A DNA stretch of 64,000 nt. It comes from Candidatus Cloacimonadota bacterium. Its GTDB lineage: Bacteria; Cloacimonadota; Cloacimonadia; G963667145. The translations under genes were made by a program, and so were the position numbers. Numbering within the stretch: position 1 is the first letter of the stretch; each line of letters starts with the position of its first letter. Location of the stretch: assembly GCA_963676615.1 (NCBI GenBank), contig OY781092.1, positions 1,496,545 to 1,560,544 on the forward strand, read 5' to 3'. This document shows positions 7,951 through 64,000 of this stretch, piece by piece. The notes beneath the pieces are model-generated. The model saw nothing but the letters and a program-made list of their open reading frames with translations. It ran no database searches and was not told the origin of the DNA.

Positions 7951-8026
7951 GTGCGAAAATTTGGCGATTATGATTTGACAAAAAATCACTGAAATCAACT
8001 TTTTTACTCGATAGATGGGAGGACAA

Positions 8027-8224: not shown

Positions 8225-8252
8225 TTTTTAGCAAAGTTGTTCTTTTAATGTA

Positions 8253-9485: not shown

Positions 9486-9486
9486 T

Positions 9487-12116: not shown

Positions 12117-12117
12117 A

Positions 12118-22550: not shown

Positions 22551-23866
22551 GGCACCGTCCAAAAAAGTGTGTCTAATCTCCAATTTGGTTTCCATTTTCT
22601 TAACTTTCTGGGAACAAAATTTTGTCAAATTTAAATTGATAAATCGGATAATTCAGATATTTATCGACCTTGTCCATCGCGACCTTGCTCAGCAGCAGTA
22701 GCACAGACTCATCGCTGGGCATCGAGTTCCTGATTTTCAAAACTTTCCGAAACTGTTTATTCAAATTTTCGATCCAATTTGTGGTGTAAATCAGCCGCTG
22801 AATTCTGTGGTCAAACTCCAAAAAAGTGAAATAATAAACGACATCTTCTCTATTTGATAAGTTCCTGATAAATCGATACTTATCGCCCCATTTTTTTGCA
22901 AAATTATCCAGATTTTTTAAAGCAATTTCTTTCGTATAGCGTTCTTGTTCGACGCAAAAAATTTCCTTCAAATCGTCGCTAATTTCGCTTTTATCACTAT
23001 TCCTGACCTTAGCTAACAGACTCCTTTTAAAGTGAGTTACGCACTTTTGAAATTTCGCATTTTCAAAAACTTTGCTCACAACATTTTCCAGCCCAGCAAG
23101 ACCGTCAGCCACGACCAATTTTGTCGTTTGCAAGCCTCGCGACTTTAGGCGATTAAACAAGAATTCCCAGCCAGCAGCGCTCTCGGTCGGGATATTTTCG
23201 AGCGCCAAAATGTCTCTGCTTTTGTCCTCTCGGACGCCGACAACCACGCAAAAAGCCTCCGTTTCAACGCTGTCGAGCCGCCTCAATTTGGAATGTATGG
23301 CGTCAATCATAATAATCGGATAGTTTTTTTCTAGCGGCCTATTTCGCCAATTTGTCAACAATTCTTTGAATTCTTGGCTGATATTGCTGATGGTCGATTT
23401 TTTGTAATTCGTGCCAAAAACATTTGCGAAAACATTCTCTATGTCTCTGGTAGACAAGCCTTTAGCATACAGCTGAAACGCCAATTCTCGTACTTCTTGC
23501 TCCTGCTTTTTCAAAATTTCCAAGATAAATGGATAAAATTGACCGAATCTGTCGCGCGGAATTTTGAATTGAATTTTGCCGCTGAGAGATGAAAAACACC
23601 TGCTGCGATAGCCGTTGCCTTTGTTGTTTGAGCTTTTGTTTTCCGCCATAAAAGCCTGTCTTTCCAGCTTCATAAGGCTGTTAAAAACGAACTCGATCAA
23701 TTTATTCGCGCCATAATCATTGACATTTTCGTCTAAAATTTTTTGTAGTTGACTTGCGTTAAATCGCATAAGAATCTCCTTTTTTGTTCTTTTTTTTATA
23801 AAAATTGGAGATTCTTTTTTTGTGTCTAGTTTTTTTTGCTGCAGACACACTTTTTTGGACAGTGCC
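22551..23866 (-). mobile_element. IS256-family insertion sequence, apparently intact
   Basis: 24-bp terminal inverted repeats GGCACCGTCCAAAAAAGTGTGTCT / AGACACACTTTTTTGGACAGTGCC (1 mismatch), and an 8-bp T8 target-site duplication (22543-22550 and 23867-23874). Confidence 0.93.
22600..23769 (-). CDS. IS256-family (Mutator) DDE transposase
   Basis: Motifs NKGNGYRSR, IPRDRFGQF, LYAKGLSTRDI, YPIIMIDA, VADGLAGL, QKCVTHF and IYTTNWIENLN. Confidence 0.95.
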   Translation of the reverse strand: MRFNASQLQKILDENVNDYGANKLIEFVFNSLMKLERQAFMAENKSSNNKGNGYRSRCFSSLSGKIQFKIPRDRFGQFYPFILEILKKQEQEVRELAFQLYAKGLSTRDIENVFANVFGTNYKKSTISNISQEFKELLTNWRNRPLEKNYPIIMIDAIHSKLRRLDSVETEAFCVVVGVREDKSRDILALENIPTESAAGWEFLFNRLKSRGLQTTKLVVADGLAGLENVVSKVFENAKFQKCVTHFKRSLLAKVRNSDKSEISDDLKEIFCVEQERYTKEIALKNLDNFAKKWGDKYRFIRNLSNREDVVYYFTFLEFDHRIQRLIYTTNWIENLNKQFRKVLKIRNSMPSDESVLLLLSKVAMDKVDKYLNYPIYQFKFDKILFPES

Positions 23867-54800: not shown

Positions 54801-57800
54801 TCGAAGTCAGCGCGAAATATTCATCCTATGCTCGCTGTGCGGCACTTGTGGGGAAAATCTCAACGCTCAGCAGCTCAGAAAAATCTGTCTTCAAAAACAT
54901 TTTGGTAAAAAACAGCACGATAAGATCGACTGGCTCTGCTGCGGCAATTGTTTGCTATGTAGCCACAAATATTGAAATAGACGCAAGCTTGTTGTTCGCC
55001 ATCCAAAACAGCGTATCTTCGAGTAGCGGTAATAGAGCTTCGGGAATAGCGTTCACAGTCAATATAAGTAGCACAAAACCCTATAGCATCTCTAGCAGTA
55101 TCGCGATTAACGACTCTGTCGCTTCGCAATCGGGTGTAGCAAAAAGAATATCTGCTAACCAATATGTCACTTTCTCGAATAACTATGCGTTCCGCAGAAC
55201 ATATGTAGATGGCACTCAGCTACCGACCGAAGGCACTTCTACCGACCAAAACGGCAAGCCGACCTCGCTGCTGGCACTCAATAAGAGCTTCTATCCTACC
55301 AAATTGGGCATAACTTACGATGAGAACTTCAGATGGCCAGATGTCGCAGACCAAAAGAAGGTGTATCACCCAGTGGGCAAAAATGTGCCAAACACGATAG
55401 ACTCGGGATACTTGAACTTAGCGAACTTTGAAATTGATAGCGATCCAAACACATTTAGCGATGGAACAGGAATTAGCGGAGACCCGTATATCGTGAGAAC
55501 GGAGACCGACCTGAACAATATGCGCTATGGTGTGGAGATGGATTATCAGCTCGGCAATAACATCGAAATTACTTCTACCCTCACAGAGCCGATTGGAACG
55601 GCAGCTTTACCGTTCCAAGGCAATTTCGATGGAAATGGCTACGCTATCGATGGATTTAGTTATGATGTTCAAGAAAACGGCGTGTCTGGGCTATTTGGTG
55701 TCATAAAATCAGAAGTGGGTAGCAGCATCAGAAACTTGGCTCTTACGAACTTCACGATGAGCGCTAGTGGTAAAAATAACATCGGTATATTGGCGGGTGT
55801 AGATAGCACAGAGGAGGCAGTAGCGAACACCTACAGCAACATTTTGATTTACAACGGCAAAGTAACAGGCGCCACCAGTGGAGTCGGTGGACTTTTTGGC
55901 GACGCTCCAAGTGCGATTATCGAAAATGTGATTGTCGCTGGTGAAGGTTACTACAGCTCTAACTATGCTGGCGGCATCGTGGGTAAAGACGCAAAAAGCA
56001 TAAAGAATTCGGTCGTTATTGTTGATACGATCAGAGCTACCGCAAGCAACGCTGGCAGGATTACAGGGGAGAAATTAAATATTTGCGAAAATGTTTACAG
56101 CTGGTATTTCACAGAAGCGTGGGAAGGCGGCACGCTGTATGACCCAAGAAATCCAAATACAGGCATATACGGGGACAACGCCTTTGTCACAGACTTTGTC
56201 GATACAACTTGGTGGGAAGATCTCGGCTTCAAGTTTAGCGGAGACAACAGTATGTGGAAGCTGGAGCATATCGACGACCAACAAGTGGTGCCGGCGCTCA
56301 AACATATGACAGACGACACCCTCACTGTGCCGGGACTGAAGCTGGGCATCATTGCAGCTGGGCAAAAGGTCATTACGAAGCCTTCACACTTAAACATATT
56401 GCATGTAGGAATATCTGATTCATTTTTATATTACCCCAATGAATCTATTGATTTAAGAGACTGGGAGGATGATTGGCGATTAGATTTAAATGGGGACGAT
56501 GCAGGTAACTGGAATCCTATTGCTACTTTTAAGGGGAACATAAATTCATATGGGTGCGGCATTATTGGTTTGGATGTGCAAAAAACAGTAGAAGGGAAAC
56601 AAGGATTTATCGCAAAGCTTGAAGGCAATGTGGGTAAAATAGGGATTTACAAATCCACCTTTACAACGACCGAACCTAATGTAACACAAGGCGCGATAGC
56701 CGCAGTTGTCAATTATACAGACGATTTCATAAGAAACTTGTGGTCTGTGGGCAACACCTTTAGCGGTGGAACTACCGTAGGTGGCGTTATAGGCGAAGCG
56801 GAAAATACAAGAACGGGATCTGCCGATAGATTGAGATGGCTATCTGCCAAAAACACAATCAAAGACGGCACCACAATCGGTGGCGTGGTTGGGAAAACTA
56901 ATACAAATCTTTACGGATTGGCGTGTATGGGCAACACCATAGAACCTACAAGCACACCAACTATCAACGCTATCCGAGGAGAAGGTTCAACAAATGTGTC
57001 TCTCTCAGACGCTGGCTTCACCACCATCGGAGGGGCAACTCTGCCAGAAGGAGGTCTAGATACGGACCCAAATGGCCAGGTTTTCCCTGTAGATGATCTT
57101 GATCAAACTGTGTGGCAAGATTTCTTTGATATGTCAAACGCCTCTTCTTTTACAAACCAAGTGGCAGACGGCCGCCACTATCCTACCCTGAAGAATGTCT
57201 CACTGGAGATAGACAACGGCAAGCTCGAATACTTCTCTGGCGGATCAGGAGCCCAAGGCGATCCATACCTAATCGCTACTCCAGCCGACCTGAAAGCTAT
57301 CGGCAAGGAGCAGTTTGTGAGAAAAAGCTATTATTTCGAGCAGACACAAGACATCGATATGAGCGGCGAGGAAGACTTCTGGCCAATCGGGCTTTCTACT
57401 ACAACTAATCCTGACAATCCTGGTAATTTGAGCGTTGGATTTGTGGGGAGCTACAACGGCAATATGTATCAGATCTACGGATTGCACAACTGCGTGGATT
57501 CAAAAAGTGGTCTGGCAAATATAGGTCTATTTGCTAAGGGAGGTGGGAGCTTTAAAATTGAAAATATAGTTTTGGACTCGGCAACATTTGTGGGAACCAG
57601 CTCTAATGTCGGCACAATTATGGGCTATGCTCTCCCTGCAACTATAAAGAACTGCCGCGTAACTAAATCTAGTGTTACCGGCACGAACAATGTTGGCGGG
57701 GTTGTTGGCTTGGGAGAAGGAACGAATGGTAGACTAGAACAATGTTTGGTTATCGGCACGACGATCAATTTGAACGCTAACGGCAACACAAACGCTGCTG

Positions 57801-57973
57801 GCGGGCTTATCGGAAGTGCAACCGTAGGAACGATTGAAAAAAATGTGGTGATAGATTGCACTATCAAAGCGAAAACAGGCACAACCAACTGCGACAAAAT
57901 CGCAGGGGTTGTTGGGGCTGCCACTCTCTCCGAGAACTATTTTAATTCGACAGAGCTCGAGATTACGCCATAA
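24845..57973 (+). CDS. Giant (11,042 aa) lipoprotein: about 80 fibronectin type III-like repeats plus C-terminal GLUG-motif modules
   Basis: Single 33.1-kb open frame with an AAGGAG RBS and a lipoprotein signal ending FVG-C27 (alternative start ATG 24872). Recurrent FN3 pattern P..V.ASKG...D.I.(V/L)TW...Y.IYR...D......G..Y.Y.V.A...S....GW to about aa 8400, then GGLVG/GLUG repeats with F.G.FDG.G..I motifs. Confidence 0.92.
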   Translation: MGAYSRQRKMKKILLALFLFISIFVGCTMNPEKDISSPNASASRGLYDDKIVVQWEGVSGVSQYEVCRSAVNSNNFYDDYDAIGTVTGTRYEDASPNLIPGKLYYYKVRSISGDTKSLPRRTPAIGQLKVPDLENVEVSKGTFDNQIGVTWTVPRKIIRGASEGLLGYALINYSDNEKNVTTNSVRIPFSELKGSEGQSFEDQIIRGKVYYFKTQIVVIDGEETGSEGTAIDSGWTTVSSPAMVYATKGEFSNKIQITWDEVFGIQGYEILYSDDDGASYEHLVDISTVMAEFDEQEYVWDGPIKGKEYRFRVICVDRNGEATGPNSGEDTKNKEGVYNNLGYTQYAQPIINEVTKDSVDYVRIKVTTEKPEAGERLVVQLYRRALGSEVVEKLQDATAMVTTTAGNGTATLEDNTFTGNIPGRKYYYSVTVYKDDGGKVVGESKRSVDQDGWSAIEPPFNISATRGKDSVVVRWTKVQYAKSYIVLRQDFNTKEWTELPPIETNPNVDEMSLVEDKYDIESGVKYIYKVRSKNDVESADSKFDSGWIKILPPTQFRSVGVYLNYVQLEWELVNHARRYMLYRKVKDDPGAFVAIDTVSGETGSYQDTGLAEATEFLYQIQTESEIPSLLAGQEYEMSDRALIESSAKTLLPAPVLDSASHNLKDEIVLYWRTKPGQLYNVYYEDETGGWVDVATGISDSTVTLQPGIIDLTFGRVYNFVLTTTKGDAWGESDRSNKVESYMRLDSAFNLEAGKDNETKITLTWEVIPNSGAEYYQVYKTTTEDSLNFTPLAAVKKGTQIRYTYNDESKSLNSKYKYLYKIKSFRSDYARVEPEDLRFSNVDTGWVTIQPPYFDRASLAIDNDTIKIYFKENSSGTYRIYYRESRDGEDLFFKQIETEDATNLGNSNYSYTIATYKGASVTGGIDCDSGQVLYFAMSSYGLGRESKKTEFKPGFTIIPTPEFNPGATKGEANKIEVKWNPLKIADNTIRYQVFRINTQNDEELYTVENNNGIFLDQGEDLREGFKYTYRVRAINTTAEIAVQTAYPEESLESTQSNFSDTTTGYSKLMPVLDLRATGPEGTAINEKVDVTWDPKGDRVSYVIARSLQSPIKWDTIFSGSSATGEFEDLTAEGNKIYYYKVAVSTEDYPKIVAVCDSVVGYVRPLPPANVEASKAKYADKIEVTWKKPLLVTAYQICRYNELGDSTIMSRDTAEVITRNDSVFFGDSQVEKGYSYTYKVKAISGDMGETDYSDISDDYKRKKATGYTKMPTVENIVATKGEYEDSIVITWDDIPVANNYLVQRSRVGATSSSDTIQKSTTNNRWVALKGEGLVDGQKYEYRVAAQKGTNLSHNWQADFDEGWLMLAGPTNVKASKGLPDSIIVTWDTLRTVTDVQEYQVWKKAKANAGEQDQELASGLSPQTKSWVFHASEDEKGASIGFYIKAVSAEFGTSANSEVAKGYTELEPVTEFKASPCAPDSVLGNSIILTWSTSKTSDSTIIEKMVGNQWQLLKTFDATVLDYKDLGLTEGREYRYRAQAKKRHEDGNELYSDYVYADATISIPLISFDTITKSKYLSDVELTWKGLQSGKELRFEIFVFQNEADYSTNSNVYDTLKVEENSKSYYRFKHNTVSASPGKFMSGTKYYYKIRTQTTPGGIWSELTQPEDGKPSYGWAKTPAPSMSLVSKDSIAAIYLEWNPNSAAKKFEIERYFKYPDKEAVKTYLVNENSFKDVQNLFTGHEYGYKLRAINENCENDTSAWTVELVGMARLLPPIGVTASDGTLEDTILVTWDTPKNASNPSYGATIYKVYRSQIKDPEKMSLLGDTILTNWDSNSSKTITFVDELTTKELGKMYYYGLKSQVGAEVSEMSIIDSGWAKIPAPIFTKITARDGGFKLEDDSIRVQWQDPSVLSLGSITYEIEYRIGEATAVSMSGIAEGSTEKALYIAPDERFNKIYVRIRSDRETFGKSMWSQWVETYTNMPKPVIRDVIVSLTTVGRSVRVNYICPNDWVDSVYFYREKAGEPDAAYLVKVIPNAGANVPAEFYDEKGLTMYQKYAYRVKFYKGLTGFSEASDTICVTTPVLPPDNLDATEGEYEDMVLLTWDGVSGNTVEKLSYNVYVDSTLTGSFPNWKNNNAKTAKRISLPGSPAQIPEFEVQYGVKYPTNIGVSGGEWFSLERGRNYAFAVSTNPNFNNFDEVNVSDVSEIAIGYARISTPEMISASKGEYSDKIVIKWKASNAYKHNELVDYQIYRTNLTTGVVDSSLVMKASDLNISNDTVTIEQEAQVYDLSPKVKYSYTVKALMGVDGNRTVAHASLMSPVPYSGWLAMPAPEEFRASDGISTDSIYLQWSNDDKFITQLYASYDLATLWSNQISTTQDSHYTVQILKKEDQGRYRHFGAKFYDPAFGSSKPSSTCQDSGFALFDGVQITSVSKGEYLDTIKIVWPETPNAAYYDVQYLEKGTSNWSTEINVPVQEYKIKSFNGTNRGKAFYVRVRATNDIVRFLADEGYGPTDSGFTQLDTVFGFSATKGEIPDTIALAWSEITNATSYKIYRSTAIDGEFIQKNATSDLKYEDHELSLNYGEVYFYKVLAVNELTETLPEAYQNYSRVDSGWIDIPQPQNVTATKGTYKNRIKLTWDVLQRVEGYIVDTAQENDVDEYGVLDTIRPASQGELNAYVDELPGGKFKRGVRYFFKVRAFYENVASSLIYANQDNGYIPLNIPTNVKASKGTSDSTIFVSFLASDGLLGIDNYVIQRRSKLSGDTTEVSLSSNTFGYSTNEDTIKIEDRNSLQPSKGYVYDYRVRSRIGSITSDWSAWSDYGWLNLRPLEIRVANEEDSLMTDSIKVAWDTEASQFKAVNRLDIYYDTVALSADGDWKDKLVVDDMDELDKGYIMITTQNNANFLPATMYCFRAKSCRFEDAIEISSAFSALDSGWYKLRAPKITYASIGESADTITIRWERQADLPHGSAAEMEYVISRGSTKEFKRLVNVDFYNDTLEIEPGVSHIYTVTAVHPRYLSSVASAPKRGYAKLLPPILTEVKADNQASQMKIEWVYPLEDLDEIDSFYLYRKTAYDDPENTPVYSTNAVAGTETYTWVDDDCTLGQEYFYYLRAFKAGMIISDTSNVMSDVLKLIVPSITSASRGEYTNKIDIAWTGTKDAKEYVIYRSQTPSFDVIDTVDTVAALPTSYLDDNNGVGLADGEIYYYKVASKRDKNISEKSGYYGGYTKLITPEITELSQNTEKIKLKWSKEGGNANSSGEVFVGEDLEVLSPEDSTTLQQDSTTDLISAFASGALWFVKGKEYYAKVRASITKTNIVMISGGSQESFEIVSDFSGTKKFFSKLENPVLTVHSGKLDTLLIEWNRMDGDVVSNIDVEWTEKDNPAPDTLRTTFINDGTDSTGRIKVAYTGADKLLPAVVYNFRIKFKRGLVTSDWSETEEGWTKLPAPENLVVSKGDYEDSLRFRWENYRGNTDTLQDSTYKYQIQFYDGSNFVNLEGGAITDKADFYDVTLSMKNILTRGVMTQFRIKGDVDPASSVLAQSNNLSQDSGFTRLMTPISSGTLSKGLEGKIEIEWETNLVDNATIQAYKNLGVEYQIERRKSGDEFMDYILASVDSLTKITYDDKAGLDPRDIYYYRMRFFSQVYYDRYSDVKKATSPWVVIDDSGSVKMNPPKLKVNEEGEFFTDKVELKIERALGSDSAYLYRDLNNDKNFEIIDTIKYGSSVAQGGYLFYKDEKDIESGNCYTYYAVALSGSRKSSDGQKLQTFTRLEAPENVRASEGEFDNKIVVKWDTVSRAEGYKIRFYEVLTDKLVDSAEVNNQDSVKILKAVLLKNIKVGQVYRFSVAAWNNISVYQGKKIYSESNSAEGFLKFTLPEYVTLSQDSVGFIKLQIGYPEPGFDLFIYRSANKATKAGELEKWSDYTKISVNLTYNDAEKEYVCRDILSTTGGVEGVQYAYMVQAYKSGMLNAISDTFKTYIENETGEKTGWSKAGVYRGAITATQGIYQDSIVVVWDDSEDKEFVDSVQYEWVEYNRETGKAQDSSITADTTVTRRSQSLLPESKVKNGYKYQYKLRKKFYDADDNLYTTSEISTINAVGWATMEKPTIRLTKNAAGDLVVEQQKNNNKFQVYKSVNGAESVLAATIEQGGQYVDSVVYDKHNIGKAVEYKIKTINTYTGLESAFSDAVDTFYMIYSPKYAAASQGEFTDRVEVEWQWGSARPALVDSFVVTRYDLANGDTKRFAFAGVDGARLEYRGSLPMGTDTCLFADKDVKQGVSYQYSIKSMRVNPGIDTRISPDSATATGYAKFAAPTNLSATENQKEVLITWDSIRNQGTVENFVIFYNTTEEGTYSQLQSLGTNVAPEDTFFTDTEIPQGTVRWYKVAAFNEISQEGAFAGPVRGYALMEPISGVKCWRGESTDTIKVTWSTLPVYESYYVEWSLSKETNADGRFTNRLDKRGSFTNSNYKADSVIIPIVPDSLRGRKIYVQLWAQNEYGGSEPVLDSGYARLRPPANFSVSKGTELDSIEFTYAKRIGSNAESYNIYASTNKQESQQPTAAAIKIEGYNGIDTTIEVDPNTEGYYYYASVQAVSDLENASSDFAVDSGYSQIPVVSDFGIEALSSGDIELSWIPVDIGAETDSVKYNVYRSRNNGTFYLIADNYYSEPAQGKIRFVDNTCEPGDLFEYYVVSEASQRPTEFRVISDTSEHKKTSAQIGFVSGFEQDTSYFSSALVNLKWKQRGDIDSYYIYRSSFADTAKATEIKVEIANGNFYYSDASSAVSDSSGMLWHYWIRARKNGNFGNWTPVDDQQGLLAYTRPAKTSIVEASQGVSSDTIRVVWNKVDFVSNYVLQYRVENSTEWSDIESIADTFYTLMRNRENLQDGVRYDFRVYSVIEKDAQSPKGSDNGYYGREMTSEPSDIEKGFVKFEKIKNFIFQSADDSIKSDTIQLTWEKLAATEIVYTLYRNTIENEAGAQEIGKVKDVGSYLDIRNPGGTVPEGGKEYYYWITAGKNTLAGSTSDKQAVSVMNGASPVEGSYAWCLLEEAENVWASGKMKATGGDNDASVTYSDSIVIKWDSVPNATTYALQEKRNEGNWTNITGAGNVADTQFVWSRTTDAQKGIIYQFRVAAQNNLCGTNNPVYSEPVNGFAKLSTPREVEAYQKENENGIFLRWQPIDNAQKYVVYQTEDLAKGFNKLLEVLDDGTDTKIDTVDLEPLPGTRRWYVVRAFNSATGGSDTSEIVDTVCPILPPENLNATKGESESEVVLTWKLNDRTAGVSGFYVYRTKPGMAGGAAFSQVDSIGVVTNFTQTAGVATFRDKLGDEVKNGADTTRSGVKYLYAVKTFKNDEISEFTPTAEQDTGWIALPQISGLSVPVVKADDNFVLKWNKGKDVKKDINYVYKRIRYKAGNLDTVYQYEENYSVISDTTATDAQGLENGMGYQYFVKAFNSEYVDESNPEIWESSDNRGLVSEEWSEGVFTGRKFAKPVMQVERNKDSLKVDSIYIAWELNKNATNFIFEIDTVATFNSPSKDERTQDDPNGDFESFYYTLQGGLLKTQVYYFRMKMENQEFNNDIWDSLTSVWSEPDSGWSKLVPPLNVAASDDLVDSILVTWDKWNWKDSVEYQVDYISGIGMPGFEKTYGSSLQYRSPYTEGANIITVTAKHAKFGNSAPSEAVQGVGKLPSPEFTPGKEPTKGDYLDSIYFEMDETSGGLSEVDIRYRIFVSQDSTSDEISSASPDAGNYIESTSEKIALKLDDGFYANQYGKKLYIRIAWAIGTDSELFSQKSKLDSGWTKLKAPTALSVRELGAPDDTTSIGIRWNPSVNADSTVIYRRRYESGDDFAPIDTIDSETTEFIDYLPMDDRTKTYEYKVQAVNSLPNTQSALSKGVASYVPSIYELENFVATKGKKVDTISFSWSGNLDSIYTIQVFDENPENNSTPEPVVVLNGLKESDANNWDVTEDNCQSGRWYYFKLYLNGDENKPESLRFYVVDSGYAGMGEIDRAWVEVTNDTSEIDLNIMGSNVGDSAFSRFDVTNAMAYDWISKAYLSRQNNQTGVYTRIDTLDAENLIYTDRFTTGFGKIYDYRLEFINQIEPGRTVDYKTFTTLRKPSNVAWQASTLAKDEIEVRVTNPTGVNGTIDSIVLYRSAPSNAGEIDTLIYAYTAGLNTNALVDTKILQRGLFYFYTAAFYSKTTGLSRVSDQEARAYAKLTSPQFISVSDGINKDTIFLKWNKIENAVNGYTLYRDTSEAGDWATREVVATLDNNTDTTFDDETDYEQCKKIYYRVVANGYDTTSVFDECETGIGSRAFRGVTDFAGVGIPKVDTMSFTFSLPQGVALDGTTSYPYFKKGVKLMRYTKFDSINSISNDFAVKEDSISVVQSGNTYTVTDKSKPKLKELYYYRVILRVSGSSGETDLSNYALGYLKPPVVENVTATAGTKVDTVLIKWDKLPKESVIEDTVTSYILVRNDKNGVEIDRVTLGGSDSTFKDYNGNSFAEPFEPGKDYTYYVLANVEFTRGGTAYSINSEKSEVADGWAEMQPLSAEEIEVTKGNIDDIDKEFAPQVGTDTTLTIKLTAIKAYQKYIIVYRKVDDSSNNFQRIDSIAGENIVDFTDTIVKAGQILRYRFRIGNDHLSSNYADTLAYTNLRPVTKLEKVSTTKDYVQIKVFAASSTKNAKVDSVMLLRSDETGVVLDTAIHEGFTGDFALIKDSAGNQGQKYTYQAALFNNSTGYSPFGTSDVSLGKDISAPTILNVYEGAREDTIKITWSMVDGAVKGYRVYRDSTGGTGLNDGDYDSLYQTPASPAFEFATDTFYSDKTEYPAGKKIYYKIVAIGKDKMSARSAAGFGYLKYGGIKDLKAFEWPKKGKIDTMSLSWSISNNITYDSIFMARLSEVNYVDSVDTLNKHLIPQSQMKKNIGEGEYEKIGDYDLYTYNSTSDDLLIGQLYFYRAKVRVSGSWSDFSNVAIGYLEMPKVNNVRATRGVGDSIVVTWDSVPHAKEDSVDYYTVYRYTSDGSAPGEARVSGNTKRFVDYTGDESPFNQTEKGREYNYAVIAFMQIDQDTLAGATTSNFEKSLKGPESDKYMGYSIPDSAYFVEISKGTTEDSIVITYHSPAYVDEVSLYRKGSEETSWSADAYASLDIGMAVEEGVAVDKNIEYGKKYDYKILVKKGDNSVWSKVDSGWSRLRRPDSVKILVNGRYSNEIKLQIFTSNQDINVDSIIVYKEAVSSGQIDTTVWAKPSIVQGSYVLGDTVDIQQGLFYQYSVAFKNEIGTSLTRKEKTGKAFAKLDIPEWNSISRNEYVDKIELNWSMNKDAYRGYRVWVDTVSGTNGTNPENYEIRYENSQTNDCSQDTTFSDDRVYVPGKMIYYKIQAMGYDTVSEMSDFDFGTCKYEGVKNLSFDGPKVDSLRFTWSVPTTIANPSFVFYKFDSVETVDSLNDKYKADIMPYGANGSYYFVETPAQEDLLIGNLYFYRCIVTVSGVESNPSNVAFGYLDMPEVEGLSATKGGVYAEGNTLTPYKDSIVLTWSRMNHVVNDSVSYYQITRFAGDKETGLSMQLDNGKDTSFVDKVGAMKFGEKTERGQLYRYVIQAYYDISEDTSSAATAPPFETKLVSPAIDTVLGYTYPDSVNLVSASKGTYEDTIRVSYTSGKHADSIVMQRKGSNGIWTRIGTLDEMESRTNPRTFVDKSVALRAGENYDYKATVYVQGLKRESNIVSGYTRLGSPKNLEFVRTSQYSYVAGKEDTSGINIRWNKEPDGDGYIVYFDTVNPVRLAEADSVTITSDADTTYFWTPSEFKNSQDSILQYYIVAKTYMNDASGGKQYSELSNVAEGAVVSKSVRGLSAAYNPAVGVEQIQVQWDSLPKGYETSEVQRYDVYQAMNSKVNSAFSLVTSQNSRVAKKVGVDTSLTPAGNVFYYKVMVRYNNAKDSSVYSAMSEPVYPPLGDLGLEVSKDSAQMFVYFNEIANVNEYRIYKAVDTLPELRNPVATLTDISGIVTDGRAKWTDAAAEEGKIYYYAIEVRKTFPVDEVDFTISTTTGFDLNSAKYGYIKSEITVVDFNFCAGGIEISWPSSEANFPIGLNPRNYTLSRREKGASSSASVDISSKIVRTQIGATQDSLCTVQDTTGLYGTPLTDGKAYEYVLKSEIKSKIEGNSMYIKSPKMTMSYFYDWNRDSVSTNRNYVGSPGTYEDRLELKFSKFLPSRPSQDYDTIGITPDTVSYYKITRYPQSGDIEEGSEANITVSQLGEEEDVETGEVVYVFSDDATSSVFGNPVSGESYSYAVQAVLDYTKGTEFESAILNNADSSASYIKIAAMTLIKAEEYKENDRIEGAKIVWEATTGADAYVISRDTSSSFNSPEVATVSGGALLQGDTMFIDYNLPKVNNTGNNSPLGKLKMGYTYYYSVQKQMGDPAAPVTSDRSNYKSYTHGIKNGEYIVSNWVDFNDLAEQYNDGEITGSITVKLLNDLTFSSNTDSLLPLGNQAYPFQGTFDGQGHTINIEAIEDNHANVGVFGKIKDASVSNLIVNYNVGIAGAADYAGGLVGQIEGISKINNVKMNIAADFTADIAVGGMIGGGDGAINASGDTVSINGTMSAGVYAGGFAGKVVGTTEIDSCQVTANSVSVTGGSESFVAVGGMFGQFHGRIENSAVEVATQIAAGVNSKKCYAGGLVGYEEQTGSVYKTSTVGVISSGVSAGNASSTRAAAGYFIGYSRAALIDEINITAVLPVAAVASGEACAGGLVGKFENIAGSIDAVSLTLAGDISANSASGDAYAGMVVGKAEKISQNSIGKDGVTSVFSGGSKNLKATANNGNAYLGGVVGSISATSFKGLKVEDVNFLTEGAQKAYVGGIAGKEEQAGSAYDSVVVAVTVTFGESLNNADTLVVGALAGSSKMASLARTHILANIELNTGFSGKSVIAGGLCGEIDNIAFAIPNTDLTLNSFAIKAGAKSKIGAIAGKANVSNFLTDENTLADINFTEMEVGEGSYVGGLYGDLSLVGGATPFDYKAPVEITLTANGYNSQRSYVGGLIGRFESTLSKSLADTSNAGVNLTLSGDGITAGGLVGLSQDATLTGCRVKAALSGSEDDVTLGGIIGEMSGNSYLRKSSAREGVTLVDAQKAGSLVGKMNVSTLAGIKNSFSYNIAANNIDTLGLLVGEMTSGKIEASYSLNCKAVNATVVGDFVGVMNGGTIANSYAAKANQENVCGKYVAGDTAGAVTAENQIFLSDIILSKAEWALDSTFSYPYLVENKYEVSTLYNDLKMNKNAQNQYEITKPIQLDAIGDVRLKGGDYTKLGDLSEGLRLNNNYIIKNNLDFSGYTGYTPVGYDATNPFVGDLDGNFKNVRNIEITGTQNTGIFGYSTGNVSKLRVVGATVDAVDKSAVVCGEMAGGSFDRIELDSSTININTGSGAGVVGLISGGTLSNVLTRFNKIEALSNVGVISGKMTGGRVLKAVSVVDSAGSSVGNAGGVASQASGNATIDSCFMVTKVLSGKEVYKVAEKGSSTTFRGNYSVAETKMVENGNDRWYMGIDPTSDQGGNVFFSMFKEFFDSDSHGFNAPDWQCDDYARVYPFLLDFEGAEMQQLPVDALESPAKIENRVMTINSLEGLAFIEGSLSEVDTIKLAANLEFTEDDDFSLGEGNFDPITKFEGIEFNGQGHYIKGMKINANKVNMGFVQVMENSTIKNLGLIECEVIGGSSTQSLGGLAGKTGLGTNTIVDVYVGSGRFVATNAQNVGALLGQLGAGGDVSWIIALNNTVKAKTNAGGLIGYATEGSVSNSVVAADTLSATNTSRVVNSAGATLSDNYGWNGNEKGNDPGLANENGATFTFSELLRKEFYSSKLDFIGRTAWSWDDADIQNWRCMPNLSQMTAADCEPAVVRFTKGTQGTESIPYGIESLNQLELLQAFPKGLFFELKENLNFQTADYDVDDDEDNGNWLPITQFESNGDCFDGHLDGNGYSIKGMKVHDQNNPVAGTYGVGLFGQCDPGVDIQNLSLYDFEVSAKYSSYARCAALVGKISTLSSSEKSVFKNILVKNSTIRSTGSAAAIVCYVATNIEIDASLLFAIQNSVSSSSGNRASGIAFTVNISSTKPYSISSSIAINDSVASQSGVAKRISANQYVTFSNNYAFRRTYVDGTQLPTEGTSTDQNGKPTSLLALNKSFYPTKLGITYDENFRWPDVADQKKVYHPVGKNVPNTIDSGYLNLANFEIDSDPNTFSDGTGISGDPYIVRTETDLNNMRYGVEMDYQLGNNIEITSTLTEPIGTAALPFQGNFDGNGYAIDGFSYDVQENGVSGLFGVIKSEVGSSIRNLALTNFTMSASGKNNIGILAGVDSTEEAVANTYSNILIYNGKVTGATSGVGGLFGDAPSAIIENVIVAGEGYYSSNYAGGIVGKDAKSIKNSVVIVDTIRATASNAGRITGEKLNICENVYSWYFTEAWEGGTLYDPRNPNTGIYGDNAFVTDFVDTTWWEDLGFKFSGDNSMWKLEHIDDQQVVPALKHMTDDTLTVPGLKLGIIAAGQKVITKPSHLNILHVGISDSFLYYPNESIDLRDWEDDWRLDLNGDDAGNWNPIATFKGNINSYGCGIIGLDVQKTVEGKQGFIAKLEGNVGKIGIYKSTFTTTEPNVTQGAIAAVVNYTDDFIRNLWSVGNTFSGGTTVGGVIGEAENTRTGSADRLRWLSAKNTIKDGTTIGGVVGKTNTNLYGLACMGNTIEPTSTPTINAIRGEGSTNVSLSDAGFTTIGGATLPEGGLDTDPNGQVFPVDDLDQTVWQDFFDMSNASSFTNQVADGRHYPTLKNVSLEIDNGKLEYFSGGSGAQGDPYLIATPADLKAIGKEQFVRKSYYFEQTQDIDMSGEEDFWPIGLSTTTNPDNPGNLSVGFVGSYNGNMYQIYGLHNCVDSKSGLANIGLFAKGGGSFKIENIVLDSATFVGTSSNVGTIMGYALPATIKNCRVTKSSVTGTNNVGGVVGLGEGTNGRLEQCLVIGTTINLNANGNTNAAGGLIGSATVGTIEKNVVIDCTIKAKTGTTNCDKIAGVVGAATLSENYFNSTELEITP
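43142..47980 (+). repeat. Three tandem copies of a ~538-aa five-FN3 super-repeat inside the giant gene
   Basis: Equivalent Leu codons at 43142, 44759, 46373 and 47981 (periods 1617, 1614 and 1608 bp). Shared motifs KKIYY.(V/I).A.G.D, (K/P)K(V/I)D(T/S)(M/L), LY(F/Y)YR...VSG....SN.A.GYL..P.V and V..Y...R. Confidence 0.8.
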
Positions 57974-57994: not shown

Positions 57995-58025
57995 AGGGAG
58001 CAGCGAAAGTTGCTCCCTTTTTTTT
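57995..58025 (+). terminator. Rho-independent terminator after the giant gene
   Basis: AGGGAGCAGC-GAAA-GTTGCTCCCT followed by T7. Confidence 0.9.
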
Positions 58026-58289
58026 GTGCAAAAATTGTGCAAAAGTCGTTTATTTTTGTGTTTTTGCCAAACCTAACTGTCTATTTTTGAGTAAAAAAAG
58101 ATTTGTGGGCAATTTTTGGGAAAATTTGTTGACAAAGTTCGTTGCCTTCATCACTTTACTGCAGATAGGGTTATATTGGGATGTTTGTAGATATGTTTAG
58201 CGCTCTATTTTATAACTGTTTGATTTTGAGTAATTTGCCTGCATCCAGCAGGCAGCAATATAAAATTTTTTTGAAGTTTAGGAGACACT

Positions 58290-61200
58290 GTGAAAAAAAA
58301 TGCAGGAAGTCGATTTAGGGTAGGCAGATTTTTCGGTTTGTCGCTTGCTTTCTTGTTTTTGCTTTTGGGCTGTAACGATATGATCACCCAAAACGATGTG
58401 GCGCCAAATCCGTCGGATATGTCTGCTTCCACAGACAACGAAGATTATGTGACTGTCACTTGGAACTGCTCTGGCGATGTAAACACTTTCGTTGTTTATC
58501 GGGCAGAAGAGTACGAAGCGCTCAGCACAGAGTATCTGAAGCTCGCCACTGTCGAGGGCAAAATCTACAACGACAACAGCAGCTCGCTCATTCCCGGCAA
58601 AAGCTATTACTACAATGTGGCGACTGTCGGCGGGATGATCGCCTCGGAGTCGAAAAGGCCGACGATGGGCTGCCTAAAGGTGCCGACTCTGGAAGATTTG
58701 AGCGCCAGCCAAGATTTGGAAGACAAAATCAGACTCTCTTGGACTGTGCCCAGCTCGATTATGAACAAAGAGCTAGACGGCTATGTAACGATCAAATATG
58801 CAGAAAATGGAGACAACGCCAGCATAAACAACGGCTACCAAGAGGTTATCGTGCTTGACGATCTGGTCAACAGCTACGACCTCACCAATGTGGTTATCGG
58901 GCAGTCTTATTACATCAAAGCGACAGTCTCTGTCAAAGCCAAAGGCGCCAGCGATTTGGAGCTGCGGCATTCGGCGTCCAGCAACATCGTTATCGGCAAC
59001 ACCAAAGTCACTTCTCCAAAAACTGTAACAGCCAGCAAGGGCAACTATTCAGATGGTATTCGGGTCACTTGGAGCGAAGTTGTGGGAATCGACGGTGTTG
59101 TCATCAAAAGGTCGGATGAGTCTAGGGGCTTTACGATGTATGACCAGATTGTAGGTGATTTTTATGATGGAGAAGCTGAATTTAAGGAGCGAAAATTCAA
59201 CGACACGACCTCCAGCGTCAAGATGGGCTCTCCATATCGCTATGCGGTGTATGGTCTTATCAATAACGGCTTGGGCGCTTACGACACTTTGGCGATAAAT
59301 AGCGCAGGACTTGACCAAAAAGATACTACGGGGCAGTTCCTAAACCTCGGTTACAAAAATTACGAGCAAGCAGAAAATTTGAGCGTATCGCAAGACAGCA
59401 TCGGCAAAATCGTGCTGAATTACCAAACGAACGCCGACGAATTTGATAACCTCTATGCGCAACTATATCGCAGAGACTATTTCGGCTCTAGCACTTCAGA
59501 CACGGCTGCGTGCGGCGCCGCTTTGCTTTTGACCGATCCGCTGTTCTCTTTTGTGGACGAAGATGTCGTCCCTGGCAAAAAATATTTCTACTCTGTAAAT
59601 ATCTACCGACTGGACGGCGGCATAAAAGAGGGAGCTTCTGGGCTTTCCGAGCCAGTTGTCGGTGTCAGCAGATTGGCGGCTCCAGAGAACCTCGTGGCTA
59701 CCGACGGCACCAGCAACGACGCCGTGATCTTGACTTGGAACAGCGTTACGGGCGCAAACAAATACGACATCTATATGGGCACAGACACCGCAAAGCTCGG
59801 CTATGTGGGCAGCAGTTTGGACACGACCTACTCTGTCAGCAGAGCCTACTACGAAACAGGCAAAGTCTTCTATTTCCGTGTGAGCGCTCTCGGCGACATC
59901 TATTCGCAAAAATCGAACCTCGACTCTGGCTGGATACGGATTAACGCTCCACTAGACTTTAGGCTGATTAGCACTAAAACAGATGGCTTCGAGCTTGGCT
60001 GGGTAGCCGTTCAAAACGCTAGAGAGTATGTGTTGTATCGCCGCAACTATCTTCCAGATTCGGTTTATGCTGTGGTGGACACGCTGGACAAAAATTTGAC
60101 AACTTTCATCGACTCTGGTCTTGAATCTGGCTTCCAATACGCCTACAAAATCGTTACCGTTAGTAACCAAGAGATAGCTCCAGACACTTATCAGATGTCT
60201 GACAGCTCCAACGAGGTGATGTCCCGCACAACGCTGCGCTCGCCGATTTTGGACTCTGTCAGCATCAACGAAGACGGACAAATAAGGCTCTGGTGGACGG
60301 GCATTCCGGGCATCGTCGATTTGCAATACAGAATCTACAAAGAGGTTGGTGGCGGCTATGAGTCGTTTGCTCAGACGAGCAGCTCCGAGTACACTTTCAG
60401 GGGAGATTCGCTGGTCCCAGGTAAGGTTTACAGGTTTGGCGTTAGTGCGTTCACCACCACCGAGTTTAACGAAGAGTCGAAGTTAAGTAACACTCGCAAA
60501 GGGTATAGCAGACTGGATTCCGCCTACGATTTAACCGCAACTTTCGGAACAGTCACCGACACGATCAAACTCACTTGGAAATCGCTCAAAAATAGCGGCG
60601 TGACGGAGTTCAGACTCTTTCGGGCTAACAGCGGCACGACGGACTTTGTGGAAGTGGGCAAGGTGCTAGACACCAGCTTCGACACGATTATGGCAGATTA
60701 CAAAGAGTATAGCTTCGACGATTACAAAAATCTGGAGGGCGGCCGCCAATATGACTACAAGGTGTTCTCCTATCGCGAAGATTATTGCACGCAAACAGTG
60801 AAAGACGACATTTGGAGCAATATCGCCATAGGCAAGATAAAGATTTTGCCGCCAAAATTTTATGCGGTAGATTGCGGCGCACAAGTGGACACGATTGGCA
60901 TCTATTTTGCAGAGGACGACGGTGTCGAGAGCTATTTGTGCTACTACAGCAATCAGCCAGATATCAGCACAGCCGATTCTGTGGAGTTTTTGCCGATAGA
61001 GGCTTCAACATACAACTACAAAAGGCTAAAGTATAAGCTAGATTTGCAAGCTCATGGCTTGAAAAACGGAAAGCTCTATTACTTCTGGATTGCTTGCCGC
61101 AAAGCGGGCGAGCTGTCTGCCGCAAGCGAGTGGAAGCCTGGATTTTCGCAGTTTGCCAAACCGACGATAGCCTCGCCAGCGACCAAAGGCACACAAGATT

Positions 61201-64000
61201 ATATCGGCTTTGCTTGGGACGGACAAGACATCTCCGATTCCATAATCTACGAAATTCGCAGAACCAAACACAGCAACAGCATAACCCAAGAGCTTGCCAC
61301 CACAGACACTTTCTACCACGATGCGTCGGTCGATCCTGGCTTTAAGTATATCTACAAATATCGGATCAAAAACCAAACAGCTTTTGAGGTTTGCAACTCT
61401 TTCTACGAGGGTTTCGATGAAAATTTGACGCGGTCTTTCTATTCCGACACGACCGCAGGCTATGTGATGATAGAAAAGGTGCAGGGGCTGCAGGCGACAA
61501 CAGACGAGAAAAATTTTGTGCTGGTCACTTGGGACGATCTCGCAGGTGATGTGCTTTACGACATTTTGCGAAAAAGAGTGGACAAGACCGATTGGACAAA
61601 GGTCGATAGCAGCTTGGACACTTCCAGATTTAAGGACAACGCAAACTTCGGCAACGAAAGAGGTTACGCCTACTACTACAAAATCCGCTCTTACACCAAT
61701 GACTATCCAAATCTTAGCCAATTTTCCGACAGCGTGCGTGGGAATATGCTCTTTCCTGCTCCAGCGGGTGTGGTAGCGAGCAAAGGCGTTTACGCCGACA
61801 CGATCAAGGTGAGCTGGGACTCCATCTCGCTGGTGGACGAGTACGAGGTTTTGCGGATTGATCCCGACGGAACGCAGTTGTCGCGGTCGCCAAAGCTGAA
61901 AAAGAGCGGAAACGAGTTCTATTTTTACGACGACAGTTCTTTGGTGCGTGGCAATGGTTATCTATATATGATACGGGCGAAATTGCGTCACAATCTCGGG
62001 TTTACGGAGTATAGCGACACGACAGACGCTTACAAAAAAGAGCAAGCCACTGGCTACACCAAATTGCCAAAAGTGACAGGAGTAACGGCGACAGAGGGCG
62101 AATTTATGGACAGCGTGGTGGTCACTTGGGATCCAGTGAGCGTGGCAAATTCGTATATGGTTTTCCGTTACGACAGCGACAGGAATTTGGTGACGACCGA
62201 GGTTACAGAAAATAGGTTCTCCGACCGTCGAGCCGCAGGAATAAAGGGCGGCAAATTCTATTACTATGCGATAGTTGCCAAAAAAGGACCGCTGGAGTCT
62301 GTGAGTCCGAGCAAAGAAGCCCGCGGATATTTGGCGCTCTATGGACCAACGGGAGTCAGGGCGAGTCAAGGCTTGCTGGACAGCATCGTCATCGAATGGG
62401 ACACGCTGACCACGGCGAAAACTGTTAAATACTACATCTATCGTGGCGACGACCCAGCTGTGCCGATAGACAGCGTCGATCAGCCTTTGCACAGATACGC
62501 CTATCCTGTGCCGACACCAGAAAAAGGTGCAAATATAGATTTCTTCGTGGAAGCGCAAAGTTACTATTTTGGCAGAACGGGGCAGAGCGATACTGTTACT
62601 GGCTATTGTCAGCTGGACACGCTTGTGGGCTTTGCTCTGGCGGAGATAGACGAAGGCACAGAAAATCCAAAAATCCAGATAACTTGGACTTCGGCGGAAA
62701 GCTCGGATAGCACCAGATTGCAGATAAAAAATGGCGCAATTTGGGAAGATTTGGTAACATTGCCCAAAGAGGTTGGTGTCTATTTGGATAGCGGCAGAAT
62801 GGTCGGCAAAAGGTTGCAATATCGAGGGCAAAGCATCAAATATGACCGTGACAACATCAAATATTCTTCGTATGTAGAAGACGAAATCTTTTTGCTGATT
62901 CCAACCGTTGAGTTCGATACGATAACCCAAGCCGTCTTTGGTTACAAAGTGTTTTTGCGTTGGCCAGGATTGCCGACTAACGACGGGAAGTTTTATCAAA
63001 TTTTCGTTTATAATAACGAAGGAAATTATCTGAGCGAGACTGCGGACGATACGCTAAGATTGATAGAGTCGGGCAAAAGCTCCTACACCTTTGATCACAG
63101 CATCGTCTCCGACCCTAAATTCGTTCGAGGCAGGAAATATTTTTATCGCCTGCGGACAAGGACTATGCCCGAAGGACCAGACGGAGTGTGGTCGGATCTT
63201 ACTCCGCAATCTCCAACGCCTGCACACTATTATGGCTGGGCAAAAACTCCCGCTCCTGTGTTCGACAGTGTCAGCAAAGATTTAGTCAGCGAAATAAAAC
63301 TGAAATGGATATTCAATAGCGACGCTGTGGACGCTCAGCTAAGGATAATTGGTGTAACCGAAGATCGGCTAGTGAATTTGCTGAACAAAACAGAAGATAC
63401 TCGACCAGATGTCTATGGCGGACACGATTATAAGTTTATCATACGAGCTATCAACACCGATTTGGGAGATACATCGGATTGGTCGGACACCGCCTATGGA
63501 ATGGCTCTTTTGGGACCGCCGCCTGCCGTCGTTGCGACAAAAGGCACCGAAAGCGGCAAAGTAGAAGTTTCGTGGAATGTAAGCAGCAGCACCGACAACT
63601 ATGGCGCCGAGAAATATATGATCGAAAGGGGCAGCGATACCCTCAACTATATAGAACTGGCGACAATAGATGATAACAGCTGGAACACAAATCCATATAC
63701 CAATAGTTTCACTTACGACGATGTGATGTCTGCCTCGGAGATGGGCAAAGTTTACTTCTATCGAGTAACATCTGTCGGAACTCCAGGCAACATCTCTGAT
63801 CCGAGCGCATACGACTCTGGCTGGGCGAGAATTCCTGCGCCAGTGATTACGGCGTTTACAGGGCAAAACGGCAGATTGGCTATCGAAAACGACAGCATCA
63901 GAATAGAGTGGGAAGACCCCTGCAATTTGGAGCTAGACTCGGTAACCTATACCGTTACTGTCTCTGGCGATAATGGATTTTCTGCAACAGCAACTATGTC
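58290..64000 (+). CDS. Second giant FN3-repeat lipoprotein, paralogue of 24845-57973 (partial; runs off the right edge, >1900 aa)
   Basis: GTG start after AGGAG gives MKKNAGSRFRVGRFFGLSLAFLFLLLG-C28-NDMITQ... The same frame is still open at the window end (...VTYTVTVSGDNGFSATATM). FN3 repeats are collinear with the first giant protein. Confidence 0.9.
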   Translation, partial: MKKNAGSRFRVGRFFGLSLAFLFLLLGCNDMITQNDVAPNPSDMSASTDNEDYVTVTWNCSGDVNTFVVYRAEEYEALSTEYLKLATVEGKIYNDNSSSLIPGKSYYYNVATVGGMIASESKRPTMGCLKVPTLEDLSASQDLEDKIRLSWTVPSSIMNKELDGYVTIKYAENGDNASINNGYQEVIVLDDLVNSYDLTNVVIGQSYYIKATVSVKAKGASDLELRHSASSNIVIGNTKVTSPKTVTASKGNYSDGIRVTWSEVVGIDGVVIKRSDESRGFTMYDQIVGDFYDGEAEFKERKFNDTTSSVKMGSPYRYAVYGLINNGLGAYDTLAINSAGLDQKDTTGQFLNLGYKNYEQAENLSVSQDSIGKIVLNYQTNADEFDNLYAQLYRRDYFGSSTSDTAACGAALLLTDPLFSFVDEDVVPGKKYFYSVNIYRLDGGIKEGASGLSEPVVGVSRLAAPENLVATDGTSNDAVILTWNSVTGANKYDIYMGTDTAKLGYVGSSLDTTYSVSRAYYETGKVFYFRVSALGDIYSQKSNLDSGWIRINAPLDFRLISTKTDGFELGWVAVQNAREYVLYRRNYLPDSVYAVVDTLDKNLTTFIDSGLESGFQYAYKIVTVSNQEIAPDTYQMSDSSNEVMSRTTLRSPILDSVSINEDGQIRLWWTGIPGIVDLQYRIYKEVGGGYESFAQTSSSEYTFRGDSLVPGKVYRFGVSAFTTTEFNEESKLSNTRKGYSRLDSAYDLTATFGTVTDTIKLTWKSLKNSGVTEFRLFRANSGTTDFVEVGKVLDTSFDTIMADYKEYSFDDYKNLEGGRQYDYKVFSYREDYCTQTVKDDIWSNIAIGKIKILPPKFYAVDCGAQVDTIGIYFAEDDGVESYLCYYSNQPDISTADSVEFLPIEASTYNYKRLKYKLDLQAHGLKNGKLYYFWIACRKAGELSAASEWKPGFSQFAKPTIASPATKGTQDYIGFAWDGQDISDSIIYEIRRTKHSNSITQELATTDTFYHDASVDPGFKYIYKYRIKNQTAFEVCNSFYEGFDENLTRSFYSDTTAGYVMIEKVQGLQATTDEKNFVLVTWDDLAGDVLYDILRKRVDKTDWTKVDSSLDTSRFKDNANFGNERGYAYYYKIRSYTNDYPNLSQFSDSVRGNMLFPAPAGVVASKGVYADTIKVSWDSISLVDEYEVLRIDPDGTQLSRSPKLKKSGNEFYFYDDSSLVRGNGYLYMIRAKLRHNLGFTEYSDTTDAYKKEQATGYTKLPKVTGVTATEGEFMDSVVVTWDPVSVANSYMVFRYDSDRNLVTTEVTENRFSDRRAAGIKGGKFYYYAIVAKKGPLESVSPSKEARGYLALYGPTGVRASQGLLDSIVIEWDTLTTAKTVKYYIYRGDDPAVPIDSVDQPLHRYAYPVPTPEKGANIDFFVEAQSYYFGRTGQSDTVTGYCQLDTLVGFALAEIDEGTENPKIQITWTSAESSDSTRLQIKNGAIWEDLVTLPKEVGVYLDSGRMVGKRLQYRGQSIKYDRDNIKYSSYVEDEIFLLIPTVEFDTITQAVFGYKVFLRWPGLPTNDGKFYQIFVYNNEGNYLSETADDTLRLIESGKSSYTFDHSIVSDPKFVRGRKYFYRLRTRTMPEGPDGVWSDLTPQSPTPAHYYGWAKTPAPVFDSVSKDLVSEIKLKWIFNSDAVDAQLRIIGVTEDRLVNLLNKTEDTRPDVYGGHDYKFIIRAINTDLGDTSDWSDTAYGMALLGPPPAVVATKGTESGKVEVSWNVSSSTDNYGAEKYMIERGSDTLNYIELATIDDNSWNTNPYTNSFTYDDVMSASEMGKVYFYRVTSVGTPGNISDPSAYDSGWARIPAPVITAFTGQNGRLAIENDSIRIEWEDPCNLELDSVTYTVTVSGDNGFSATATM

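Follow-up and report, generated by a model that had tools for sequence, protein, structure and literature searches.

As a rule, giant surface proteins of bacteria consist of arrayed near-identical repeats and change rapidly in repeat number, and SiiE, LapA and Ebh all carry near-identical repeats that vary in number. Outside the bacteria, titin, a eukaryotic and intracellular protein, serves as ruler and spring in the sarcomere. Among described systems, Apilactobacillus kunkeei possesses five paralogous extracellular proteins of 3,000-8,000 aa, Giant1-5, which according to the available text of their description take up 6% of a ~1.5-Mb genome (Pedersen et al. 2026, PMC12863079). Fibrillar adhesins, as characterized in the main text of another study, combine a stalk of tandem domains with an adhesive domain distal to the anchor (Monzon et al. 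2021, PMC8286594), and the giant proteins of Omnitrophota, which exceed 10,000 aa in uncultured bacteria with small genomes, have been proposed, in the text available, to act in cell-cell contact (West-Roberts et al. 2023, 10.1101/2023.11.21.568195). Here, we describe three giant genes, A, B and C, of a Candidatus Cloacimonadota bacterium, two of which were met in a 64,000-nt stretch of DNA (hereafter the window; positions 1,496,545-1,560,544 of a single 1,570,356-bp contig), with gene B running off its 3′ end. Each of the three proteins consists of a lipobox, ~80 mutually divergent Fn3-like domains and a beta-helix tip, and the evidence taken jointly makes it probable that they are N-terminally lipid-anchored surface fibres or adhesins of fixed length with a distal beta-helix tip.

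Gene B opens with the GTG at position 58290 and continues for 1,903 codons without meeting a stop before the window ends, its 3′ side being open. The initial annotation had remarked that this frame has no stop in the window and is absent as a closed open reading frame (ORF), and it is indeed open to position 64000. The same annotation had read the piece as collinear with the first ~1,900 aa of the 11,042-aa product of gene A, and this is borne out far beyond chance by BLASTP, in which one main high-scoring segment pair (HSP) covers residues 20-1918 of A at 33% identity (848 bits), the other 19 HSPs lying off the diagonal at ~20-21% identity and at most 150 bits. The six motif pairs quoted in its favour occur at near-equal positions in the two proteins (126/127, 339/351, 1260/1251, 1670/1648, 1871/1842 and 1895/1866). 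With B completed as described below, its alignment to A spans both proteins from one end to the other at 35-36% identity, with off-diagonal matches at ~20%, and their dot-plot shows a dominant main diagonal over the full length. When the proteins were divided into 100-aa segments, each scored by whether its best match falls at the equivalent position, 17 of the 19 segments of the in-window part of B matched A in place, as did 98 of 106 for the whole of B against A and 102 of 110 for A against B; against C the counts were 49 of 106 for B and 57 of 110 for A. At the DNA level, blastn found no internal repeats in B (0 matches), and similarity between A and B is confined to seven short stretches of 67-76% identity, all on the diagonal, which rules out recent gene conversion between the two genes.

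Past the window, the frame of B stays open for another 9.8 kb to the last base of the contig (1,570,356), giving a first part of 5,174 codons and one base, and a second part reads on in another frame between contig bases 2 and 16,522 (5,506 codons). Residues 20-5253 of A align with residues 21-5172 of the first part (35.2% identity, 2,882 bits) and residues 5258-10795 with residues 1-5506 of the second (36.2% identity, 3,160 bits), ~4 residues being unaccounted for where the parts meet; because these alignments are consecutive, the two parts are halves of one gene of ~10,680 aa, of which the window holds the 5′ sixth. Since B crosses the contig ends, it is invisible to ORF callers in this record. 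An early end or frameshift just beyond the window, named in the initial annotation as what would undo its claim, is thus not what the sequence holds: the frame changes only after the further 9.8 kb, at the contig join, and this single break in B is sited at the junction of the two contig ends. Contigs from two public runs belonging to two studies reproduce the terminal 1.4-2.0 kb of the contig without any difference or gap and extend 15-16.6 kb beyond its end, and the cumulative GC skew forms a clean V that is smooth through the contig ends; the matching contigs and the continuous skew together indicate that the genome is circular through gene B. When metagenome contigs were searched for the terminal 30 bases of this contig, there were 0 matches. 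In four of the five sister species, B is one ORF of 10,911-11,005 aa, and the frame break seen here is most likely an off-by-one error from the circularising assembly. We regard it as quite unlikely that B is instead a decaying duplicate in this genome, or that its long frame is an artefact of assembling a repetitive gene: the break at the contig join, a frameshift in the B gene of one sister species (G001), the loss of the last tip module and an IS256-like transposase gene downstream could all be read in this way, but there are no DNA repeats able to mislead an assembler, the contigs of the two other runs are identical in sequence as far as the contig end and then continue, both halves are still open over their whole length, the ratio of non-synonymous to synonymous substitution rates (dN/dS) among B orthologues is ~0.14-0.19, and, of all sites in 1.57 Mb, the break occupies the only one at which an artefact of assembly is to be expected.

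The third gene, C, is collinear with A over residues 13-10182 of the latter (27.1% identity, 2,846 bits), and A, B and C together amount to 94,998 nt, or 6.05% of the 1.57-Mb genome. A class-level search covered 31 genomes, namely this one, five of the same genus and 25 from other families of the class. All five congeners possess A-, B- and C-type genes, and their open frames measure 11,062-11,104 aa for A and 9,942-11,249 aa for C, with B at the lengths given above; only two further genomes among the 31 matched, weakly and over single domains. A phylum-wide search at E <= 1e-25 retrieved six of 232 genomes, all of this genus and with three matches each, and found with this query no A-, B- or C-type gene in the 226 other genomes of the phylum. 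Among the genomes searched, the family is restricted to one genus. In the two large protein collections searched, it appeared only as fragments, none longer than 6,657 aa: with 10,000 aa of A as query, two relatives were found among 1,553 candidates in one large collection, both fragments (6,657 and 6,608 aa), and a search of 1.84 billion representatives gave 3,469 matches at E <= 0.001, of which, among the 150 matches listed, six are collinear from the N-terminus (P0004, P0005, P0006, P0028, P0060 and P0134) and the rest share single Fn3 stretches. A search of genome contigs for related loci, own genome excluded, returned one irrelevant 36-residue match, in Holdemanella.

In a MAFFT alignment of 18 proteins (A, B and C of six species), identity is 44-72% within orthologue groups, 34-38% between A and B, and 26-28% between A or B and C. 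The identity matrix resolves three clean orthologue groups with the same species topology in each, and the duplications that produced A, B and C predate the split of the six species. Three of the five congeners have A next to B, and in the other two the genes are separated by 6.9 kb and 77 kb, respectively; this variable spacing implies that they are separate transcription units, in agreement with the terminator that follows A. The congener with the 77-kb spacing, G004, has additional Fn3-rich ORFs of 3,649, 3,692 and 2,335 aa at genome positions ~702,000-722,000 and ~1,169,000-1,174,000, two of which sit between its A and B. In the genome of the window, large lipobox-bearing ORFs were also noted at 793,666-808,767 (- strand, 5,034 aa), 845,993-851,206 (- strand, 1,738 aa) and 174,450-182,585 (- strand, 2,712 aa); the first two have Fn3-like domains with only a weak relation to A, B and C.

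The stalk is made of Fn3-like domains. The Pfam fn3 family (PF00041, cut-off 25 bits) matches both the in-window piece of B (E 4.8e-21, 75.2 bits) and the first 3,000 aa of A (E 7.2e-36, 122.7 bits), and a profile built from the A, B and C proteins places 67-76 such domains in each protein at a spacing of ~104 aa, ~20% identical to one another within one protein and stopping near residue 8,200-8,400. A window-based self-comparison scan for super-repeats peaked in each of the three proteins at offsets of ~525 and ~1,050 aa, the signal being concentrated at residues ~6,000-7,700 and with copies up to 48% identical, which points to a titin-like five-domain super-repeat in the distal stalk. In A, these residues correspond to window positions ~42,800-47,900, the period being ~525-540 aa and in register in A, B and C. 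In a tree of six consecutive 531-residue blocks taken from A, B and C of two species, the blocks group by position at five of the six positions and, inside a position, as ((A,B),C). Because blocks group by position before paralogue, the block duplications are older than the gene duplications, and the array was complete before C split from A/B and before the tandem pair A, B arose. An old whole-gene duplication in which each repeat kept its positional identity had been proposed in the initial annotation, and it is upheld by the end-to-end alignment, by the grouping of blocks by position and by an age greater than the split of the six species.

The domain number is fixed as well. Over columns 60-11,200 of the alignment (~10,100 residues), gap runs reach at most 32 columns in the 18 sequences and the largest deficit in any 300-column window is 50 residues, under half a domain; no whole-domain insertion or deletion (indel) occurs in the first ~10,100 residues in the 18 genes of the six species. 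Stalk lengths are equal in the three paralogues, with residue numbering staying within ~180 over 7,300. It had further been concluded, from the collinearity, that the repeats are not interchangeable spacers. That step goes beyond what the data show, since collinearity is the default after a duplication when no DNA-level repeats are at hand for unequal recombination; with no such repeats, and hence no mechanism of shuffling, it is not compelling on its own. The stronger argument for a constraint on length or domain identity is the combination of zero whole-domain indels in 18 genes with a dN/dS of ~0.1. By the Nei-Gojobori method (NG86), the closest orthologue pairs give 0.10-0.14 for the stalk and 0.10-0.25 for the tip, rough values at a dS of 1.2-3.7, which is near saturation. 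The giants are 44-53% identical between this genome and sister species, and the neighbouring RibBA and AMP-binding (acyl-CoA-ligase-type) enzyme are 85-89% identical to those of three sister species, RibBA being 61% identical to that of the other two. The low identity of the giants, their low dN/dS and the lack of domain indels together describe fast sequence evolution under purifying selection with a frozen architecture.

Such constancy would also suit an envelope structure, in which A, B and C form a coat, spacer or ruler of fixed length, possibly as lateral bundles in register, pairing in register having been suggested in the initial annotation. To the strict domain number in 18 genes and the equal stalk lengths of the three paralogues may be added that all six species retain all three copies and that the investment is large for a 1.57-Mb genome. 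We nevertheless hold this to be unlikely, because A and B, at 77 kb or 6.9 kb from each other in some species, are not an obligate operon, and because fast-evolving, binding- or enzyme-like beta-helix modules at the distal end fit a tip that meets the outside world.

That tip, C-terminal and ~2,400 aa long (range ~1,900-2,650 aa), begins past residue ~8,200-8,400. Its pieces were scanned with Pfam (the distal 2,506 aa of B and the last 1,042 aa of A) and with NCBIfam (the whole tips of B and A). The only Pfam match is Peptidase_M26_N (PF05342) in one module, at 34.9 bits against a cut-off of 27.7; NCBIfam matched neither the whole tips of B and A nor the N-terminal piece, and a sequence search of the PDB gave no match for the tip. 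AlphaFold2 models of the two halves of the B tip (mean predicted local distance difference test, pLDDT, 86.4 and 81.6) are all-beta with the strand pattern of parallel beta-helices, and one long and five short modules can be counted in their DSSP strings. For both halves, the top Foldseek match is 3n6z (E 1.1e-4 and 1.3e-6), with a TM-score of 0.59-0.69 normalised by target, IgA1 protease entries (6xja, 7uvl) reaching a probability of 0.93-1.00; below it rank streptococcal IgA1 protease (by its N-terminal domain), PL6 lyases, the binding region of SRRP and Ag43. For the last 617 residues, the neighbours in the ESM Atlas belong to Glug/Peptidase_M26_N clusters, with scores of 0.96-0.97. As modelled, the tip is a string of right-handed beta-helix modules of the GLUG or IgA1-protease-N-terminal type. 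An IgA protease (M26) was considered and rejected, as there is neither an M26 catalytic domain nor any peptidase family in the B tip or the last 1,042 aa of A.

The same structural neighbourhood bears on whether the tip is catalytic, a kind of 'enzyme on a stick' whose lyase/hydrolase- or protease-like beta-helices would degrade polymers or the envelopes of other cells. PL6 alginate lyases, chondroitinase B, fucoidan lyase, polygalacturonases and phage tailspikes are among the Foldseek neighbours, and the Omnitrophota giant proteins have been linked, in the available text, to cell-wall degradation (10.1101/2023.11.21.568195). The enzyme matches, however, have a TM-score of at most 0.37 and E from 5.7e-4 to ~6, the consistent matches being only 3n6z, a non-catalytic GLUG beta-helix, and the N-terminal domain of IgA1 protease; neither Pfam, run on the tip pieces named above, nor NCBIfam, run on the whole tips, detected a catalytic family, the sequence matched no solved structure, and we consider a catalytic tip rather improbable.

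All module-scale length differences among the 18 proteins lie in the last ~900 residues, and orthologue identity is 48-60% in the stalk and 31-46% in the tip. The initial annotation had suggested alternative tips: the tip is the fastest-evolving part and the sole site of module gain and loss, which sustains the suggestion to this extent, but the tips of A and B mostly share their module order. Repeated hairpin-like elements were seen just past the stop of B.

As surface fibres of fixed length, the giants would begin their route at the N-terminus. A lipobox, with the motif [LVI][ASTVI][GAS]C, stands at the end of a lipoprotein signal peptide, and a lipobox-type Cys is found in all 18 family members; in B, LLGC forms residues 25-28, the LLLGC closing the N-terminus with Cys at residue 28. 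The genome encodes both Lgt (PF01790, 244.8 bits) and LspA, signal peptidase II (PF01252, 117.8 bits), each above its cut-off, as well as two Omp85 proteins, and the organism is thus a diderm with a lipoprotein pathway. Each giant would be exported by Sec and then lipidated on Cys+1 by Lgt and LspA; the N-terminus would be anchored in the outer membrane, and the protein would stand out as a fibre of ~0.3-0.35 micrometre, an estimate based on the ~3.5-4 nm length of an Fn3 domain. The beta-helix tip would bind, or possibly cleave, polysaccharide or glycoprotein carried by particles or partner cells, and the paralogues would present three related, diverging tips on stalks of equal fixed length. 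No Pfam anchor domain was reported in the pieces scanned (in-window B, the first 3,000 aa of A and the tip pieces). Two other routes were considered and set aside: a substrate of the type I secretion system (T1SS) of the RTX kind, as the C-terminal pieces contain no RTX (HemolysinCabind) family and the N-terminus carries a lipoprotein signal, and a cargo of the type IX secretion system (T9SS), as neither Por_Secre_tail nor TIGR04183 occurs in the C-terminal pieces of A and B searched with Pfam and NCBIfam.

Several observations weigh against the reading as lipid-anchored fibres. The frame of B is broken in two of six species, A and C being intact in 12 of 12 cases; in the sister genome G001, one frameshift splits B into 4,256 and 6,719 aa, and the break in the present genome may be real. 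This genome's B is without the final ~285-residue module carried by the four other B genes whose tips were aligned (G002-G005), and no remnant of that module was found 3′ of it. No dedicated export genes were seen in the 64-kb window or in the 3.5 kb after B, and we know of no precedent for a lipoprotein of 11,000 residues crossing an outer membrane. The beta-helix fold is common to adhesins, lyases, hydrolases and tailspikes, and is compatible with binding and with catalysis alike. The dN/dS values are rough, as said, and we infer localisation, lipidation, surface exposure and ligand from sequence and models. The frameshift of G001 was placed at ~4,320-4,350 of its locus L021 (genome ~951,320-951,355), with no obvious homopolymer there. 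A more elaborate proposal is that A, B and C are three strands of one heteromeric cable of ~0.3 micrometre, in register, which would act as an extracellular ruler of the titin type and hold a partner cell, for example a hydrogen-consuming syntroph, at a defined distance. If true, it would explain why three genes are kept in six species, why no domain is gained or lost and why positional identity persists; we think it very unlikely.

The signals around the start of B are in part as had been described. The AGGAGA lies 6 nt 5′ of the GTG. The terminator placed before B is real, with its stem at 57995-58018 followed by the T-run, and the TTGACA assigned to B as its own is there at 58130, but a consensus scan of the + strand found no sigma-70-type promoter for B. 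Two Mutator-family transposase genes bracket the A-B pair (Table 1). C, on the - strand, is separated from A/B, on the + strand, by the GC-skew minimum (~1.46 Mb) and dnaA (1,471,798); no giant is more than ~120 kb from the origin, each is oriented away from it, and their ~33-kb transcripts therefore run in the direction of replication. Both lspA (1,470,747) and lgt are situated in the origin-proximal stretch between C and A. Elsewhere in the window, positions 8253-13107 form a low-GC island (28-29% GC) with two DNA methyltransferase genes and a gene for a GmrSD-type restriction endonuclease.

Table 1. Coordinates of the features discussed, in window positions unless marked as genome positions.
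Feature	Position	Strand	Basis or remark
lgt, prolipoprotein diacylglyceryl transferase	14257..15033	+	PF01790 at window 14,281-15,015 = genome 1,510,825-1,511,559
Mutator-family (IS256-like) transposase upstream of A	22600..23850	-	flanks the A-B pair
Giant gene A, 11,042 aa, collinear paralogue of B; lipobox FVGC; ~76-80 Fn3-like domains to residue ~8,400, then ~2,650-aa beta-helix tip (modelled)	24845..57973	+	ORF scan, BLASTP, domain profile
Intrinsic terminator 3′ of giant gene A; 10-bp stem, 4-nt loop, T-run	57995..58028	+	terminator scan, sequence
Shine-Dalgarno AGGAGA and GTG start of B	58279..58292	+	sequence, ORF start
Predicted lipoprotein signal peptide of B; basic n-region, hydrophobic core, lipobox LLGC, Cys28	58290..58373	+	translation
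Giant gene B, first 1,903 codons; 17 Fn3-like domains, period ~104 aa	58290..64000	+	ORF scan, translation
Mutator-family (IS256-like) transposase downstream of B	genome 17,282-18,550	-	flanks the A-B pair
Giant gene C, 9,946 aa	genome 1,400,269-1,430,106	-	collinear with A

Three proteins of ~10,000-11,000 residues have kept the order and number of ~80 domains while drifting to 27-36% identity, which is strong and testable evidence that the length of the fibre or the identity of its individual domains is under selection. The family is also a natural experiment on how a diderm exports and anchors a 1.1-MDa lipoprotein, on the arrangement of huge genes, the three flanking the origin and pointing away, and on what need makes an uncultured, genome-reduced lineage spend 6% of its DNA in this way. 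Unlike SiiE, LapA and Ebh, A, B and C have ~80 repeats that are all different and fixed in number. With titin they share long, divergent Fn3/Ig arrays, a super-repeat of several domains and positions that are closer to their counterparts in paralogues and orthologues than to their neighbours; unlike titin they are bacterial, and the likeness seen is one of architecture. In their modelled fold, the tip modules resemble BACOVA_03286 of Bacteroides ovatus (PDB 3n6z), a putative IgA1 protease, as well as streptococcal IgA1 protease in its N-terminal domain, but here six to seven such modules are strung at the end of a stalk of ~8,400 residues and no M26 catalytic domain was found.

In the literature searched, supplements excluded, no description of the A/B/C family or of giant proteins in this phylum was found. 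The Omnitrophota giants, unlike A, B and C, are heterogeneous, with dockerin, toxin-like and peptidase domains in the text available (10.1101/2023.11.21.568195), and in that text 'Cloacimonadota', 'lipoproteins' and 'paralogues' have 0 occurrences each; a second paper on giant proteins does not mention Cloacimonadota, and a paper containing both 'giant genes' and 'Cloacimonadota' is, by its title and the start of its abstract, on Planctomycetota-Verrucomicrobiota-Chlamydiota (PVC) bacteria. With fibrillar adhesins, as the main text presents them (PMC8286594), the family shares a single-chain fibre, a tandem stalk of Ig/Fn3-like domains and a different distal domain with the putative anchor at the opposite end, the repeated-domain stalk being present as 67-76 Fn3-like domains per protein with a period of ~104 aa; the anchor of A, B and C would be the lipid attached at the lipobox, and the word 'lipoprotein' is absent from that main text. 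The closest described case that we found is Giant1-5 of A. kunkeei, the resemblance being by architecture only. As far as the available text goes, both have a small genome of which ~6% of the DNA is given to a few paralogues, an elongated form and a beta-solenoid domain of binding type distal to the anchor; Giant1-5, however, belong to a Gram-positive bacterium, have the beta-solenoid at the N-terminus and evolve by recombination and exchange between genera (PMC12863079), whereas A, B and C are predicted N-terminal lipoproteins of 10,000-11,000 aa in a diderm, with C-terminal beta-helices, strict collinearity and no sign of conversion. The known kind in which we place the family is that of the fibrillar giant adhesins, and what is new here is a collinear trio of predicted lipoproteins with a fixed set of ~80 domains.

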